Source: an uncultured Actinomycetota bacterium (GTDB lineage: Bacteria; Actinomycetota; Actinomycetes; JACCUZ01). From it: a DNA stretch of 64,000 nt. Position numbers and translations under genes: made by a program. Shown in pieces: positions 52,972-60,680 of this stretch (position 1 is the first letter of the stretch; each line of letters begins with the position of its first letter). Location of the stretch: the NCBI GenBank assembly GCA_963726615.1, contig CAVSCX010000006.1:1241-65240 (forward strand), written 5' to 3'. The notes under the pieces are model-generated. The model had not been told where the DNA came from, did no database searches, and worked only from the letters and a program-made list of their open reading frames with translations.

Positions 52972-53627
52972 CCGCCGCGCCGGAGGTCTCGGTCCTCGCG
53001 ACCCCGGTCGGTGACGCCCGGGTGCACACCGCTGCCGCCGCGCAGCCGGTCGGGACGGTCGTGCTCGGCCACGGGGCGGGCGGCGGCGTCGGCACCCCCG
53101 ACCTCCGGGCGCTCGCACGGGGACTGCCGCCGGCCGGCGTGACGGTGGTCCTGGTCGACCAGCCCTGGGTGGTCGCCAGGCGGAGGGTCGCCGCCCCGCC
53201 CCCCACGCTGGACCGGGCCTGGACAGCCGTGCTCGAGCAGCTGTCGCTCGCCGGGCCGCTCCTCGTCGGCGGCCGGTCGGCGGGGGCGCGGGTCGGCTGC
53301 CGGACCGCGGTCCAGGTCGGCGCGGCGGGCGTGCTCGCGCTGGCCTTCCCGCTGCACCCACCGGGGAACCGGCCCAGCCGGCGGCCCGAGCTGGACGCCC
53401 CGAGCGCCGCCGGGCTGCCGGTGCTGGTTCTTCAGGGCACCCGCGACTCGTTCGGCGCACCCGCGGAGATCCCTGTGGCGCCCGGGCGGGTGGTGGTCGC
53501 CATCGAGGACGGCGACCACTCGTTCCGGGTCCGGAAGGGCGGCGACCAGGCTGGCACGCTGACCCGGCTCGTCGAGGCCGCCACCGGCTGGGCCCTGACC
53601 GTCTGCGCAGCGGCGGACGGTGAGTGA
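52968..53627 (+). CDS. Alpha/beta hydrolase (probable CTG start)
   Basis: [29 protein letters not shown]. Confidence 0.85.
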
Positions 53628-53647
53628 CGCCGACCGGCCCGGCCTCG

Positions 53648-53674
53648 GGAATCCCTGTCCCTGGCGGCCGGTTG
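53648..53674 (+). promoter_or_regulatory. SigR/SigH autoregulatory promoter GGAAT-N18-GTTG
   Basis: Exact match to the consensus. Confidence 0.85.
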
Positions 53675-53797
53675 CACCACTACATGGCCTCCCTCGCGTC
53701 CACCGGACGCCGCACCGACCTGGCCACGCCTGGCGCCGGTCGATGGCAGGAGTGGCCCGGGATTGAGAACACCCCCCGCGGGATAGCATCGAGGACG

Positions 53798-54418
53798 ATG
53801 ACCCAGCCCCTTGCAGAGACCGTCGACGAGCGCAATGCCCGTTTCGAACGGGACGCGATGCAGTTCCTCGACCAGCTGTACTCCGCCGCCCTGCGCATGA
53901 CGCGCAACCCGGCTGACGCCGAGGACCTGGTGCAGGAGACCTACGCCAAGGCCTTTGCCTCCTTCCACCAGTTCCAGGACGGTACGAACCTCAAGGCCTG
54001 GCTCTACCGCATCCTCACCAACACGTTCATCAACACCTACCGCAAGGCGCAGCGGCAGCCGAAGCAGGCGGGTACCGAGAACGTCGAGGACTGGCAGCTG
54101 GCTCAGGCCGAGTCGCACATGTCGACCGGGCTGAAGTCGGCCGAGGCCGAGGCGCTGGACCACCTTCCCGACTCCGACGTGAAGCAGGCACTGCAGGAGA
54201 TCCCGGAGGACTTCCGGATCGCGGTCTACCTTGCCGACGTCGAGGGGTTCGCGTACAAGGAGATCGCCGAGATCATGGGTACGCCGATCGGCACCGTGAT
54301 GTCCCGGCTGCACCGCGGCCGCCGCCAGCTGCGGGGCCTGCTCGAGGACTACGCGCGGGAGCGGGGACTCGTCCCCGCCGGCGCCACCGACGGGGGAGAG
54401 GGAGGCGAGCGGTCATGA
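53798..54418 (+). CDS. sigR: ECF sigma factor SigR/SigH (longer isoform possible from ATG 53684)
   Basis: [37 protein letters not shown]; adjacent to rsrA. Confidence 0.95.
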
Positions 54419-54687
54419 GCTGCGGCAACCCGCACGACACCCCGTGCGACGAGGTGCTCGCCCGCGTCTACGAGTTCATCGACGGTGAGCTCGCCGACGG
54501 CGAGAAGCGGCACGCGATCAAGCACCATCTGGACGAGTGCGGGCCGTGCCTGGCCGAGTTCGGGCTCGAGGAGCAGGTGAAGTCGATCGTCAAGCGCTCC
54601 TGCTCGGACCCGGCTCCGGCCGAGCTGCGGGCCAAGGTGCTCAGGCACATCGCAGCCGCCCGTGACGAGCTGCGCACCGAGATCTGA
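54415..54687 (+). CDS. rsrA: ZAS anti-sigma factor RsrA
   Basis: [16 protein letters not shown] (HxxxCxxC). Confidence 0.93.
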
Positions 54688-56064: not shown

Positions 56065-56763
56065 TCAGCCCGCGAGCTGGCGGTTGAGGGCAGCCAGCAC
56101 GGAACGGGCGACCGACTCGGCTTCGTCCCCGCGGACCGCGGCGCAGCCCGTGAGCACCTGCTCGCCGGTGCGAGGCAGCAGCATGGTCAGGACCGTCATG
56201 GCGACGTCACGCGTGCCGGTGGCGACGATCGTCGACGACTCGACCTCGCAGGGCTGACCGAGCAGCTCGGCTACGGCGTCGAGGGTCGCGACGGCCACCA
56301 ACCGGGCCCGGTGGCTGGCGCCGGCCGGACCCTGGCTCCGGCCCTCGAACAGCTGGTCGCCGGCGGCCAGGGTCACGGACGCCTCGGTCTCACCCTTGCC
56401 GCTGCGCACCATGATCGCGGCGATCGCGGGCCGGACCACAGCCTCCGGCTCGCTGGCGGGAACGTCGGGCGCGACGTCCGGGCCGTCGGCCGGCGCAGGT
56501 GTGACCGGGACGGCAGGCCCGCGCAGCTCGTCGTCGCCCATCTGCACGACCGACACGATGCGGTGGTCGATGTCGATGTCGTAGCGCGCCATGGCGAGCG
56601 ACTGCACGTCGCGCACCACCTGCTTGGCCGCCTTGCCCGGGTCGGCAAGCACGTGCACCTCGGTGGGCACGGCGTCCGGCCCGGTGACGACGCTGGCAGC
56701 GCGAACGCCCTGGATGTGGCGCAGCGCGTCCTCGAGCTCCGGCAGCAGGCGCAGCGTGGGCAT
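56065..56763 (-). CDS. Hypothetical protein with a LeuA-regulatory-like C-terminal domain
   Basis: GAGGAG RBS; EVHVLA...KQVVRDVQS...IDHRIVSV; ends VARSVLAALNRQL. Confidence 0.8.
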   Translation of the reverse strand: MPTLRLLPELEDALRHIQGVRAASVVTGPDAVPTEVHVLADPGKAAKQVVRDVQSLAMARYDIDIDHRIVSVVQMGDDELRGPAVPVTPAPADGPDVAPDVPASEPEAVVRPAIAAIMVRSGKGETEASVTLAAGDQLFEGRSQGPAGASHRARLVAVATLDAVAELLGQPCEVESSTIVATGTRDVAMTVLTMLLPRTGEQVLTGCAAVRGDEAESVARSVLAALNRQLAG

Positions 56764-56810
56764 GAGCGGGGGGCTCCTCGGGCGGGTGCGATGGGAGGTC
56801 GGGGTGGCGA

Positions 56811-57428
56811 TCAGGCGCGGTCCGACGCGGGGATCTCTCGGAGGTCGGCCACGAACAGGCGGGGCGATGGTCTCCCCAGGGTGCTCGGTCCGGTCCCCGC
56901 AGGGGCTGAGGCGCGCCGGTCGGCGTCGAGATCGGCCCGCTCCGCCGGGAGCCGGACCACCCGCTCGGCAGTCGTCTGCGGCCACCCCGGTCCGGACCGC
57001 TCGGGGGTCGCGGGAGGGACGGGGGCCGGCGCCGGGCGGCCCGCGGTCCCGGTCGGCCCGGCCTCGGTCGGCCCGGTCTCGGTGGGCCCGGCCCCGGTGG
57101 GCCCGGCCCCGGTGGGCCCGGCCTCGGTCGGCCCGGCCTCGCCCAGCGTGGCCGCGGCCCCGCCGGCGTACCGGCGCGCCTCGGCGTCGCTCGCGTCCAG
57201 GGCGTCCAGGACGGCCGGCAGCACCGTGCGGGCGTGGTCGTCGACCGCGTTGACTGCCGCTCGCTGCCAGAAACGGAGCCGGTTGGCCGCGCGTGGGGAC
57301 AGCTCCTCGGCGGCGACCGCGGCCGCCAGCTCGGCGTCGAACCGGGCGGTCGCATGGTCCGTCCGGGCGTCGAGCAGCCCGTTCACCAGGTCGGACCACG
57401 ACGCTCCCGGAGCCCCTGCCGCGGTCAC
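56811..57428 (-). CDS. Hypothetical protein with a GPT-repeat linker
   Basis: GTG after AGGGGGGAG; helical N-domain (RFDAEL...LRFWQR). Confidence 0.7.
   Translation of the reverse strand: MTAAGAPGASWSDLVNGLLDARTDHATARFDAELAAAVAAEELSPRAANRLRFWQRAAVNAVDDHARTVLPAVLDALDASDAEARRYAGGAAATLGEAGPTEAGPTGAGPTGAGPTETGPTEAGPTGTAGRPAPAPVPPATPERSGPGWPQTTAERVVRLPAERADLDADRRASAPAGTGPSTLGRPSPRLFVADLREIPASDRA
57051..57140. repeat. 15-bp tandem repeat x6 (GGTSGGCCCGGYCYC)
   Basis: Six adjacent units encoding (E/G)(A/T)GPT on the minus strand. Confidence 0.9.
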
Positions 57429-57720
57429 TCTCCCCCCTGCTCCACGGGCGGAGCGTAAAGGAGCCAGACGGGAGAACGGCTCCCATTCCCCTCGGAATGG
57501 TCAGGTCGGAGCAAAGTCGTCACTCGTTCGGGCGCACCGGCCACGCCTAGTCATTTCGGGCGAGATTGCCCGGACTACTAGACACAAATCGGCCTAAGGC
57601 TTGACGGGAGGTTTACCCGCACCCTTCACTGACATGGCGGACGAGCCGACATGTTCCCCGGGGGCCGGGACCATGCGGCCCCCGGAACGGTCCCTGATGG
57701 ACCACCCGGACGGCCGTGGG

Positions 57721-57739
57721 GCCTTTGACAACTGCAGAG
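57721..57739 (+). promoter_or_regulatory. boxA-like element GCCTTTGACAACTGCAGAG in a structured leader
   Basis: Resembles rrn boxA/leader sequences (CTTTRAMAAC). Confidence 0.45.
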
Positions 57740-57900
57740 AGCGTGATCGGGATCGGCAGCACAAGCAAGCCGATCAGCACCATGTGCAGATCTTTCGCAG
57801 CACCAGCACATGCACCACGGATTCATCCTGAGCGGAGCGGATCGTGCACGGGCACATAGCGGAGCCCGTGACATGACACGCAAGGGGATGAGACCCACAT

Positions 57901-57963
57901 ATGAAGAAGATCGTGTCCGCTGTCGAGCAGTTCCTTCAGTCCGGCGCCACATGGCGTTGGTAG
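57901..57963 (+). CDS. 20-aa peptide MKKIVSAVEQFLQSGATWRW
   Basis: AAGGGGATGA (8/10 match to the extended SD) 9 nt before the ATG; TAG stop; directly upstream of the HD-GYP pair. Confidence 0.7.
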   Translation: MKKIVSAVEQFLQSGATWRW

Positions 57964-58047
57964 AGCTGAGGGCTGACAGAAGGCAGTACCACCCTGCGCT
58001 GCCGATCCCCGTCATTCTCTCCGCCTTCCCCCTTGTCAGGAGCGTCG

Positions 58048-59403
58048 ATGCGGGCACTGCCGCTGCCGGCGCGGCTCTACGTCGCGTCCGTGCTCGCCGC
58101 TGCCTGCATGCTGGTGGCCCTGGCGGTCGCGTTCCTCCCCAGATCCGCGATCGACGACGTCATCGTGCTGGGGACGCTGTACCTGATCAGTGAGTCGTTG
58201 TCGTCCCGGGGCAGCCGCGACATGCTGACGATCTCCTTGGGCTCGGTCGTGATCATGGCGGCGATCCCGCTCGTCGGCGTGTGGGGGGCAGTGCTCGTCG
58301 CGTGGACCTCGGCGTTCGCCCATGAGCCACAGGCGACCGAACCCGTGAAGAGGGCCTTCAACGGCGCCATGCTCGTTGTCTCGGCCGGCGCCGCAGGTGG
58401 CGCGTACCAGGCTCTCGGTGGTCGCGTCGGGCTCGGTGCCGACGACTTTCCCAACGTCCTCGGTCCCATGCTGGCCGCGGATCTCGTGCAGTGCGCTGTC
58501 AACGGCGGTGTCGTGGCATTGATCGTCGGCCTGTCGAGCCAGGTCTCTCCGGTGGTCGTCTTCCAGGGGACCATGGCGCGCTCGGTGGTCCCGTACATCG
58601 CCTACGGGTTGTTCGGCATCTCGCTGGCAGTGCTCTGGGACCCGGTCGGCCTCGGGCCGGTCTCGGCAGCGCTGCTGCTGCTCCCGCTGTTCGTCGCCCG
58701 GTGGGCCTACGCGCAGTACGCGGAGGAGCAGCGCGCCTACGACCGCACTGTCCGGACGCTGATGGCGGCCGTCGAGACGAAGGACCTCTACACCCGTGGC
58801 CACAGCGAGCGGGTCTCCGCGGCCTCGGTCCTCATCGCGCGGGAGATCGGGATGCGCGAGGACCGGGTCGCCTCGCTGCGGTACGCCGGGATGCTCCACG
58901 ACGTGGGCAAGCTCGGCGTGCCCACGCGCGTGCTGCAGAAGGCGGGCCGGCTCACCGACGACGAGTTCGCCGCGATCCAGCGGCACCCGGTGCAGGGACT
59001 CGAGATCGTCCGGGAGATCGACTTCCTGGAGGAGGCGAACGCCGGGATCATGCACCACCACGAGCGGCTCGACGGGCTCGGCTACCCGATGGGTCTCACG
59101 GGCAGCCAGATCCCCGAGTTCGCCCGGGTCATCGCCGTGGCGGACGCCTTCGACTCGATGACGACCACCCGGTCCTACCGGGGCGCGCGCAGCATCGAGG
59201 ACGCCGTGGTCGAGCTGCACCGATGCGCCGGCACCCAGTTCGACCCGCCCATGGTCGACGCGCTCGTGCGCGCACTGGACGAGCACGGCTGGGACCCGGA
59301 GACGACGCCGTTGTTCACGGCTCCCGACCCCGACCAGGTCTTCGACCAGCAGGGCGGGGCGCTCGACCACGACGACCCGGCCTACGCCGAGGATTCCCGG
59401 TGA
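58048..59403 (+). CDS. Membrane-bound HD-GYP cyclic-dinucleotide phosphodiesterase
   Basis: Multi-TM N-terminus; YTRGHSERV, LHDVGK, HHHERLDGLGYP, VADAFD, GTQFDP. Confidence 0.93.
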   Translation: MRALPLPARLYVASVLAAACMLVALAVAFLPRSAIDDVIVLGTLYLISESLSSRGSRDMLTISLGSVVIMAAIPLVGVWGAVLVAWTSAFAHEPQATEPVKRAFNGAMLVVSAGAAGGAYQALGGRVGLGADDFPNVLGPMLAADLVQCAVNGGVVALIVGLSSQVSPVVVFQGTMARSVVPYIAYGLFGISLAVLWDPVGLGPVSAALLLLPLFVARWAYAQYAEEQRAYDRTVRTLMAAVETKDLYTRGHSERVSAASVLIAREIGMREDRVASLRYAGMLHDVGKLGVPTRVLQKAGRLTDDEFAAIQRHPVQGLEIVREIDFLEEANAGIMHHHERLDGLGYPMGLTGSQIPEFARVIAVADAFDSMTTTRSYRGARSIEDAVVELHRCAGTQFDPPMVDALVRALDEHGWDPETTPLFTAPDPDQVFDQQGGALDHDDPAYAEDSR

Positions 59404-60680
59404 CCGCGCGCAGCCGGCTCGACGATGCCGGCAGCATGGGCTACCTCGTCGTGGTGGTCGCCGCTGCGCTGCTCGCCGTCGCCTCCGTCGTCGTGACGGC
59501 GGGCGCCGGCCTGGTCCAGCCGCAGGTCGCTCTGGCGTTCGCCGCCTTCATCGCCCTGGGCGAGCTGGTCCGCATCACCCTGCCGGGCGGGCGCGACGCG
59601 GCCCCGCTGGCCACCGCCGGTGCGCTGGCCTACCTCCTGCTCACCACCTTCTCCGGCCGGCCCGCCGACCACGGCGCGATGCAGGTGGTCGCCGTCTCCG
59701 TCGCGGCCATGCTGCTCGGGGTCGTCCCGCACGCCGTCGCAGGTCGGGCGCCGACGCCGGACATCCTCGCCCGGCGGCTGCTCGTCATCGGCGTGTCCGC
59801 AGCGGCGTTCCGCGGCAGCGGCCTCGACGGCCGGCTCGACCACGTCGCAGGTGCCTTGCTCGCGTTGGTGCTCATCGCGATCGTGGCCTTCAGCCTCGTC
59901 GTCGACGCGGTACTTGCGGCAGCAGTTCGGGCCGGTGCGGATCGCGCCCCCTTCAAGGCGGTCCTGCGCAACGAGGTCCGGGCCCAGGTCGGCATCGGCT
60001 CGGCCATCGGCGCGACCGGCGCCCTGATCGCTCTCGCCGCGACGATCATGGGCTACTGGGCGCTGCCCGTCTTCGTCGTGCCGTTGCTGCTCACCCAGTT
60101 CTCGTTCCGACGGTACGCGGCGATCCGTGAGTCCTCGCTGCAGACGATCCGGGCGCTGTCGCGAGTGACCGAGCTCGGTGGGTACACCGAGGCCGGCCAC
60201 TCCCGGCGGGTGAGCACGCTGGCCGTCGCGGTCGGCCGCGAGCTCGGCATGAGCGACGCCGAGCTGCGCGACCTCGAGTACGCCGCGCTGATGCACGACA
60301 TCGGCCAGCTCTCGCTGGCCGAGCCGATCCCCGGCGGCGCCACCGTCGTGGCTGCCCCTGCCGACCAGCGGCGCATCGCCCGGTTCGGCGCCGAGGTCAT
60401 CAAGCAGACGGGCGTCCTGGACGAGGTGGCCTCCATCGTCGAGCAACAGGCTGAGCCGTACCGCCGGGCGCACGAGGTGGAGCGACCGGACGTCCCGCTG
60501 GCGGCGCGCATCATCAAGGCCGTCAACGCCTACGACGACCTGGTGGGAGACTCTTTCGAGGTCAGGCGGCGGCTCGACGCGCTCGAACGGCTCCGCCTCG
60601 GCATGGCCTACGAGTACGACCCGAAGGTCGTCGACTCCCTCTCGCAGACTGTCGAACGCACGGCCCGCCTCGGCGTCTGA
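59400..60680 (+). CDS. Membrane-bound degenerate HD-GYP protein
   Basis: GTGA overlap; GHSRRV and MHDIG retained; HHE and GYP replaced by QQAEPY; NAYD. Confidence 0.88.
   Translation: MTARSRLDDAGSMGYLVVVVAAALLAVASVVVTAGAGLVQPQVALAFAAFIALGELVRITLPGGRDAAPLATAGALAYLLLTTFSGRPADHGAMQVVAVSVAAMLLGVVPHAVAGRAPTPDILARRLLVIGVSAAAFRGSGLDGRLDHVAGALLALVLIAIVAFSLVVDAVLAAAVRAGADRAPFKAVLRNEVRAQVGIGSAIGATGALIALAATIMGYWALPVFVVPLLLTQFSFRRYAAIRESSLQTIRALSRVTELGGYTEAGHSRRVSTLAVAVGRELGMSDAELRDLEYAALMHDIGQLSLAEPIPGGATVVAAPADQRRIARFGAEVIKQTGVLDEVASIVEQQAEPYRRAHEVERPDVPLAARIIKAVNAYDDLVGDSFEVRRRLDALERLRLGMAYEYDPKVVDSLSQTVERTARLGV

Follow-up and report, generated by a model that had tools for sequence, protein, structure and literature searches.

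A conserved small open reading frame with a tryptophan tail in a structured leader RNA upstream of hdgA-hdgB-type genes in actinobacteria: a candidate leader peptide

A gap of 560 nucleotides (nt) in the genome of an uncultured Actinomycetota bacterium (assembly GCA_963726615.1, contig CAVSCX010000006.1) contains a 20-codon open reading frame (ORF) ending in Trp-x-Trp, directly upstream of a gene for a membrane protein with an HD-GYP domain, and raises the question of whether this ORF is translated and what its product would do. The window analysed here is the whole stretch of 64,000 nt around the gap, which has a G+C content of about 0.61-0.65 as compared with 0.70-0.87 in its flanks. An earlier note on the window, made from its letters alone, had pointed to the ORF as a hidden gene with its own Shine-Dalgarno box and had proposed for it a layout of a leader and a short core, released by cleavage near a Gly-Ala pair and reminiscent of Trp-rich pheromones. 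Both the ORF and the box are present as described there, and the translation is identical to the peptide that was given. The G-run of the box (57884-57887) ends 13 nt 5' of the ATG, which is a long spacing for a core site, and the complementarity of the box extends beyond this run. The evidence set out below argues for a real, conserved coding ORF enclosed in a conserved RNA structure and tied to a single operon; its features resemble those of a regulatory leader peptide more than those of a pheromone.

Conservation of the ORF was followed at two depths. A DNA search with positions 57480-58200 against 61 related genomes gave matches in 40 of them, including 31 of the 36 genomes of the same family. 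Among 30 loci of this family, an intact ORF of 20 or 21 codons was found in the same place in 28 (27 of 29 when locus L015, which comes from an unpublished genome, is left out of the count); of the two remaining loci, one ended at a contig edge and the other (L030, genome G005) carried a 1-nt insertion located 5' of the Trp codons. With positions 57825-57970 as the query of a class-wide search, matches were obtained in 114 of 401 genomes, a tally that includes two unpublished ones. A pattern test for the full architecture was passed by 68 loci, 54 of which were aligned (alignment A1) after 14 near-duplicates had been dropped, whereas five more loci failed the test and yet showed the box, the hairpin and the ORF described below. 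In 53 of the 54 aligned loci, which belong to many families of the class, a homologous ORF was intact and agreed in its start, frame and stop. The versions of other families differed by many substitutions and appeared as amphipathic forms of 20-23 residues or hydrophobic forms of 24-25 residues; a form of 13 residues was found in genomes of 1.2-1.7 Mb.

Codon-level counts were made on the 35 of the 54 sequences that could be placed in one codon register. Glu9 was conserved in all 35, Lys3 and Leu12 in 34 and Val8 in 33, each of them written with several synonymous codons, and at conserved residues three codons were used for Val8, three for Leu12 and four for Ala16. Differences from the consensus at the first, second and third codon positions numbered 132, 114 and 185, respectively. 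The stop codon was TAG in 13 cases, TAA in 17 and TGA in 23, and loci within the family likewise used all three. Positions 17 and 19 were hypervariable and the N-terminus was conserved within and between several families; in the same family as that of the window genome (f1), codons 14-17 and 19 varied both synonymously and non-synonymously. An open frame alone is weak evidence of coding, because frame +2 over the span of the ORF was also free of stops in 46 of 53 loci (frame +1 was stopped in 45 of 53). The case for coding is built on the conservation of start, stop and ribosome site, on length changes that stay in frame, on amino acid conservation accompanied by synonymous turnover, and on the recurrence of Trp-tailed ORFs described below. 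As judged from the alignments, all these factors taken together indicated that the peptide is under selection at the amino acid level and that the ORF is a conserved coding sequence rather than a chance frame. The claim of a genuine hidden coding ORF was thus borne out by ortholog conservation and synonymous turnover, and its ribosome site, too, has the look of a functional one. The loss of the frame or of the terminal Trp among orthologs, which the earlier note had named as grounds for giving up the idea, did not occur; both are kept. The same comparison of orthologous loci, which it had proposed as a check, left the Gly-Ala pair without conservation across families.

The ORF does not stand alone in the gap. 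The block 57749-57760 is the reverse complement of 57998-58009 and the two blocks change together across families; single mismatches between them are G-U only on the + strand, which points to this strand as the RNA. These blocks belong to a long-range helix of 20-24 base pairs (bp), named P1, which encloses about 240 nt comprising a variable spacer, a purine-rich 12-nt box, a hairpin (P2), the ribosome site and the ORF (Table 1). Pairing in P1 and P2 was possible in 95.6% of the cells of A1 as compared with 84.6% after shuffling of columns (a value as high as the observed one arose in 0 of 500 shuffles), and it dropped to 33-43% when the partner was slid by 1-3 columns. Compensatory changes were present at 22 of the 31 pairs across both helices. 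The 20 pairs of the P1 core were 97.5% paired, with 15 of them covarying, and P2 was 98.4% paired, with covariation at 6 of its 7 pairs, whereas the 4-pair extension of P1 (57735-57738 with 58020-58023) was weaker, at 80.8%. The single-sequence fold of 57733-58060 also includes P1 and P2 (-136.6 kcal/mol, z = -3.1); for the segment 57636-57727, further upstream, the value was z = -1.6 only, which gives weak support to structure there. This comparative analysis shows an RNA predicted to form the enclosing helix P1 plus the hairpin P2 around the ORF, and these covariation-backed helices lie in the 5' leader of one gene family, as would be expected of a riboswitch-like element. No Rfam family, 6S included, was found at expect values (E) up to 1 in 57000-58600, nor did any family reach its gathering score anywhere in the 64-kb window.

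Within this structure, no consistent pairing partner of the 12-nt box was found across the 54 sequences. Its pairing with codons 6-7 of the ORF was considered as a universal helix and rejected, as it was complete in only 25 of 54; it appears to be family-specific. The invariant 5-nt unit that is repeated in the box could be a site of protein or ligand contact. A weak pairing of the Trp codons with the 3' strand of P1 was seen only in f1 and showed no covariation, and a mini-hairpin hiding the Shine-Dalgarno box of the ORF was likewise rejected as unsupported, since its pairing (63.5%) was no better than that of shuffled columns.

The gene that follows this leader encodes an HdgA-like protein in which the HD and GYP residues are invariant among 25 orthologs, and it is followed by a paralog whose product is 26% identical to it and shows no conserved GYP block when the two are aligned. 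The pair thus has the make-up of an HdgA/HdgB-type operon, with a membrane domain and an intact HD-GYP domain in the first product and a degenerate paralog after it. In PMC6205966, hdgA (six transmembrane segments, 6TM, with HD-GYP) and hdgB (6TM with degenerate HD-GYP) of Streptomyces venezuelae are described in the same order and as a likely operon. When the HdgA of the window was used in tblastn searches, 52 of the 54 aligned loci had an hdgA ortholog directly downstream of the leader in the same orientation, and in the other two the contig ends within 350 nt of the leader. The unit of leader and ORF is strictly linked to hdgA.

Some individual loci departed from this picture. In G005 (L030, contig C8), where the ORF is frameshifted, the hdgA match begins at residue 149 and has an internal TGA, which could be consistent with joint decay of ORF and enzyme gene or with an assembly error in this metagenome-assembled genome. 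The hdgA ortholog of L011 (G012) and L012 (G032) aligns in 4-5 separate tblastn pieces next to an intact small ORF, a pattern suggestive of frameshifts or assembly errors. Second copies of the ORF together with the 3' strand of P1 and an hdgA-like start occur at contig ends in four genomes (L097, G019:C108; L098, G022:C153; L099, G289:C66; and G150:C33); they may represent paralogs, variants between strains or duplicates introduced by binning.

HdgA orthologs (E up to 1e-40) were present in 189 of the 401 genomes of the class, a tally that includes unpublished genomes. Because they outnumber the leader as detected at DNA level (114 of 401), regions upstream of hdgA elsewhere were inspected. 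Two genomes of family f3 have a different leader, with a 35-codon hydrophobic ORF that ends in Trp-Thr-stop about 70 nt before hdgA. Twenty further hdgA upstream regions were picked by hand from families f3, f46, f41, f44 and f30, which give few or no leader matches at DNA level; in 19 of the 20 a script picked out an ORF that has Trp among its final seven residues, and in the remaining one such an ORF was seen by eye. The forms seen in these regions were hydrophobic ORFs of 25-29 residues ending in Gly-Trp-x-Trp-Trp-stop, polar ORFs of 16 residues ending in Gly-Ile-(Ser/Thr)-Trp-Thr-stop, and 21-residue relatives of the window peptide; f46 and f44 had in addition a second ORF, only 9-10 codons long, with the ending Trp-x-Trp-(x)-stop. 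The small ORFs stand in tandem in L237 and L238 (f46) and L241 (f44), where a 21-codon single-Trp relative is followed by the 9-10-codon ORF nearer to hdgA. The strict pattern Trp-x-Trp-(0-2)-stop was met in 12 of the 20 regions on the sense strand vs. none of 20 on the antisense strand; its background was at most 57 ORFs in 559,456 nt of all other fetched loci, true ones included. Taking all versions together, ORF length ranged from 9 to 36 codons, the N-terminal part varied in length and composition from amphipathic to hydrophobic, and the distance from Trp to stop was 0 to 6 residues, whereas a Trp-x-Trp or single-Trp tail was present in every version seen. The earlier note was therefore right to single out this tail as the key feature. 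Since Trp-tailed ORFs recur before hdgA in leaders of unrelated sequence, the Trp tail of a short ORF at this place is older and more widespread than the particular RNA fold.

What a translated ORF would do in such a place can be approached from these features. The reading to which we give somewhat more credence than doubt is that it is a leader ORF (upstream ORF) translated within a conserved 5' leader RNA, structured and about 410 nt long, through which hdgA and hdgB would be regulated. As in known leader peptides, the ORF is short, has its own ribosome site, and lies on the same strand upstream of a constant gene; as in leader-peptide attenuators and arrest peptides, selection is focused on residues or codons near its end. 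The selection at the C-terminus, the constant position before one operon and the embedding in a conserved RNA are the reasons for proposing a cis-acting leader ORF that is read at its end, and a conserved Trp tail behind a variable N-terminus is what would be expected of a peptide acting inside the ribosome or of sensor codons. Where the ribosome stands on the Trp codons and the stop, or how long it stays there, would remodel the leader and in this way set hdgAB expression. This could occur by way of P1 and its pyrimidine-rich 3' flank, which adjoins the hdgA ribosome site, or through processing at P1, which is long enough to be a processing site. The behaviour of the ribosome could depend on the supply of charged tRNA-Trp or, alternatively, on an arrest that requires a peptide or a ligand, much as in ribosome-mediated attenuators and arrest peptides. 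In a more specific and improbable version, the Trp-x-Trp nascent peptide and the repeat-bearing leader RNA would together sense cyclic di-GMP (c-di-GMP) or its breakdown product, the ligand either stacking, inside the ribosome tunnel, on the side chains of the Trp residues or binding the RNA; the substrate would then induce its own phosphodiesterase, as free tryptophan does for tryptophanase via TnaC, and the leader would represent a new class that senses a second messenger.

Several observations weigh against a cis-acting leader peptide. The N-terminal two-thirds of the peptide are well conserved in many families, beyond what a pure Trp-codon sensor would need, and some lineages have only a single Trp. 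In f1, codons 1-13 are near-invariant even at third positions, rare T-ending codons included, so that constraints at RNA level overlap the coding signal. The distance between the ORF stop and the 3' strand of P1 ranges from about 9 to more than 60 nt depending on the lineage, and a terminating ribosome therefore cannot touch P1 in all of them. Between the ORF and hdgA, no conserved helix was found by RNAalifold on sub-alignments, no conserved hairpin sequestering a ribosome site was found downstream of the ORF, and a generic scan gave no terminator-like site between the element and hdgA. No small ORF precedes hdgA in the two Streptomyces-like genomes examined. A weak hint in favour comes from expression: 5% of the sampled words were present in a soil metatranscriptome run of 95 million letters, in which three short contigs (166-214 nt) of relatives cover 57723-57962, a span that stretches from P1's 5' side as far as the ORF end. 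This fits an abundant RNA, but contigs of an RNA library do not prove transcription, and the gaps at 57600-57722 and 57963-58400 are uninformative.

These points have to be set beside what other explanations would account for. The conservation of the N-terminal two-thirds and the hydrophobic versions of other families make a peptide acting in trans the main rival, tentative and clearly less probable than a cis-acting leader ORF. It would work with HdgA/HdgB as a subunit, a modulator or a ligand of the 6TM input domain, the RNA structure serving mRNA stability or processing and so giving peptide and enzymes in different amounts. Such a role would fit the conservation over the whole peptide length in many families, the conserved strong ribosome site, the strict adjacency to a membrane sensor-type gene, the helix-like hydrophobic versions of 24-36 residues with a basic N-terminus and an aromatic C-terminus in some families, and a P1 that would be long enough for a double-strand-specific processing site. 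The window peptide itself fits it poorly, however, with Glu9, Gln10 and Gln13 at its centre, and could not span a membrane, being too short and too polar; a hydrophobic stretch of the kind required occurs only in some other families. Moreover, lineages with 9-16 codons leave little for a folded partner, and hydrophobicity is not conserved, only the Trp tail. A complex prediction of a 35-residue version (L222) with residues 1-235 of its HdgA, from a 25-row alignment, gave a score of 0.01 and counts neither way. That the ORF is not translated at all, its frame being kept open by chance in a GC-rich RNA conserved for its structure, is hardly credible. The stop-free frame +2, the near-invariance of codons 1-13 in f1 and the ability of codons 6-7 to pair with the invariant box in that family would all agree with it. 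The many synonymous changes between families at conserved residues, the conserved start, stop and ribosome site, a frame broken in only 1 of 54 loci, the return of a Trp-tailed ORF before hdgA in leaders of unrelated sequence and the lack of any conserved helix formed by the ORF region itself speak for translation.

An independent abundant small RNA, either binding RNA polymerase like Ms1 and 6S or acting in trans otherwise, with the ORF secondary (a dual-function RNA) or irrelevant, is unlikely. The long closing helix, the conserved internal motifs, the strong covariation and the metatranscriptome contigs confined to just this region in three relatives are features of such RNAs, and the invariant repeated 5-nt unit could be a protein-binding site. 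An Ms1/6S-like RNA was rejected because the flanking genes differ and Rfam gave no match; the neighbours that define Ms1 in PMC9130861, a HAD-IB hydrolase and an oxidoreductase, are absent here. In addition, no terminator separates the element from hdgA, none of the loci examined had the element apart from hdgA (52 of 54, with contig ends cutting off the remaining two), and the peptide is clearly under selection. The pheromone reading, in which a secreted Trp-rich signal peptide would be cut from its precursor near Gly-Ala and perhaps be sensed by the adjacent membrane HD-GYP protein, we regard as very improbable. It draws on the hypervariable residues between and before the Trps within one family next to a conserved N-terminus, as in many pheromone precursors, on the neighbouring membrane receptor-type gene, and on the resemblance of some hydrophobic versions to signal peptides. 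The leader-plus-core layout of the earlier note did not hold up on closer comparison, as no modifying enzyme, protease or exporter was recognised by Pfam in about 4 kb upstream and 3 kb downstream, and the ORF sits within a covarying RNA structure that goes with the HD-GYP operon behind it. The Gly-Ala pair at which cleavage was placed is not conserved outside some families, the core would have only 4-5 residues, and lineages of 9-16 codons carry the Trp tail with no room for a leader, the minimal versions having 9-10 codons. The window peptide has no hydrophobic export signal, and Peptidase_C39 (PF03412), the domain of transporters that serve cleavage of the double-glycine type, was not found in its genome, which is 95.7% complete, whereas it was found in 7 of 14 control genomes.

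The coordinates of the leader, the ORF and the two genes are collected in Table 1. The leader length of about 410 nt is an estimate from sequence, counted from the candidate promoter as its presumed start. The hexamers and spacing of this promoter are conserved in the upstream alignment in family f1 and several other families; a generic sigma-70 scan found no promoter. It lies about 100 nt upstream of P1, and its -10-like hexamer departs from the usual actinobacterial consensus.

Table 1. Features of the hdgA leader region and of the genes that follow it, in window coordinates
Feature	Position	Strand	Remarks
Candidate promoter	57601-57630	+	-35-like hexamer 57601-57606, 18-nt spacer, -10-like hexamer 57625-57630
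Upstream leader segment	57636-57727	+	Two putative family-level hairpins; paired blocks in the f1 alignment
Nearly invariant 6-nt box	57728-57733	+	Directly 5' of P1; invariant or at least 90% conserved columns in A1
P1, 5' strand of long-range helix	57735-57760	+	Core 57739-57760, extension 57735-57738; predicted by RNAalifold and pair counts
Variable spacer	57761-57830	+	Length and sequence differ by family; often lineage-specific hairpins; A1 columns 46-195
Invariant purine-rich 12-nt box	57831-57842	+	Two tandem copies of the 5-nt unit; 11 invariant columns in 54 sequences
P2 hairpin	57847-57853 and 57864-57870 (arms)	+	7 predicted pairs; loop sequence conserved
Third copy of the 5-nt unit	57858-57862	+	In the P2 loop
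Shine-Dalgarno box of the small ORF	57882-57891	+	Purine-rich; G-rich box kept in A1
Small ORF	57901-57963	+	ATG 57901, TAG 57961-57963; 20 codons and stop; ends in Trp-x-Trp-stop
P1, 3' strand	57998-58023	+	Starts 35 nt after the ORF stop; core partner 57998-58019, extension 58020-58023
hdgA-like gene	58048-59403	+	ATG 58048; ribosome site 58038-58042; N-terminal membrane domain and intact HD-GYP; Pfam HD_5 3e-38
hdgB-like paralog	about 59472-60680	+	Start approximate; degenerate HD-GYP; Pfam HD_5 4e-11

Among eight neighbouring ORFs searched against Pfam, an ECF sigma factor, a zf-HC2 anti-sigma factor, a Zn-dehydrogenase, two HD_5 proteins and a DUF5317 protein were recognised. The two that remained unmatched are overlapping minus-strand ORFs upstream of the leader (56811-57428 and 56065-57486); within them, at 57050-57141, a 15-nt unit is repeated 6.1 times with 92% matches in the part of the region with the highest G+C (0.84-0.875). 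The redox-type ECF sigma and zf-HC2 anti-sigma pair (53624-54687) lies 3.3 kb upstream of the leader, with the Zn-dehydrogenase gene and the two unmatched ORFs in between. In two Streptomyces-like genomes (L223 and L224), hdgA comes directly after an anti-sigma gene, about 110 nt away, and this adjacency suggests an ancestral sigma, anti-sigma and hdgA neighbourhood.

Searches for relatives of the element among described families gave no counterpart. The peptide and 10 variants had no family in NCBIfam or Pfam, the best rows lying far below the cut-off (E of 0.16 and 0.65), and an exact look-up of two peptides gave no match, the reference for the second probably carrying wrong minus-strand coordinates. 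In the literature searched, no paper was found that describes an RNA motif or a small ORF ahead of actinobacterial hdgA or HD-GYP genes; supplements (e.g., the lists of Ms1 candidates of PMC9130861) might mention the region. A pattern scan of contigs matched at least 120 stretches, those listed being mostly chance matches from which no distribution figures can be derived. Streptomyces matches among those listed were all at an unrelated locus upstream of a different gene, and the true carriers among the matches listed were metagenome-assembled genomes titled Jiangellales, Mycobacteriales, Frankiaceae, Sporichthyaceae, Nanopelagicales, Actinomycetes and Actinomycetota. All carriers with a public title are metagenome-assembled genomes, from soil and freshwater actinobacterial lineages, which may be the reason why the element went unnoticed. 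If the leader-peptide reading is true, mini-ORF and structured leader would make up an undescribed, widespread regulatory unit that precedes the only operon for an HD-GYP-type c-di-GMP phosphodiesterase in these bacteria. It would give a concrete handle on when actinobacteria make the HdgA/HdgB enzyme pair and would lengthen by one family the short list of leader and arrest peptides known in bacteria. It could be used, too, as an RNA marker in metatranscriptomes, since its carriers are mostly soil and freshwater lineages that are uncultured.

Among known systems, MgrB, KdpF and CydX are small proteins encoded beside membrane sensors or enzymes, and the actinobacterial SafA is reportedly a small protein encoded next to a sortase (PMC9282373). 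The ORF described here shares with them a tiny co-oriented gene directly upstream of the gene of a polytopic membrane protein, and some of its versions look like a single hydrophobic helix, whereas the window version is polar with 20 residues, some lineages have only 9-16, and conservation is centred on the last residues. Riboswitches for c-di-GMP and other structured leaders precede GGDEF, EAL and HD-GYP genes; the leader of hdgA has in common with them a covarying conserved RNA in the 5' leader of a c-di-GMP turnover gene and invariant unpaired nucleotides beside helices, as in aptamers, and differs in matching no Rfam family, in a helix that encloses about 240 nt including an ORF, and in having no recognised expression platform. 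TnaC is an arrest peptide that acts at or near termination. PepNL is described as another termination-proximal one in PMC11890864. The actinobacterial arrest peptides ApcA and ApdA, as presented in PMC7897499, have 80-200 residues, export signals and a different arrest motif and precede sec or yidC genes, in all of which they differ from the ORF of the window. With arrest peptides in general it shares a small ORF upstream of the gene that would be controlled, and with TnaC and PepNL the conserved C-terminal residues that would be within the ribosome at the stop, its 9-36 codons falling in their length range. In contrast with arrest peptides, the stop codon is not fixed here, all three being used, the Trp-to-stop distance varies, and stalling is only proposed. 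Ms1 RNA, flanked by HAD-IB hydrolase and oxidoreductase genes in Actinobacteria according to PMC9130861, resembles the element in being an intergenic RNA of actinobacteria, in its size of about 300 nt, in its long closing helix and in its apparent abundance; flanking genes, the missing 6S match, the conserved coding ORF and the tie to a downstream operon set the two apart. Leader peptides of trp operons, finally, belong to ribosome-mediated attenuators with Trp as regulatory codons, the rhizobial trpL peptide and the released attenuator RNA reportedly acting also in trans (PMC6614838, 10.1101/606483, PMC1262725). The downstream genes here serve c-di-GMP signalling and not Trp biosynthesis, a variable codon separates the Trp codons or only one Trp codon is present, and a long-range helix of 20-24 bp encloses the ORF where no terminator/antiterminator pair was found. 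Common to both are a very short leader ORF with Trp codons near its stop and only the tail universally conserved, its embedding in a conserved RNA structure, and its location on the same strand as the genes that are, or here would be, regulated.

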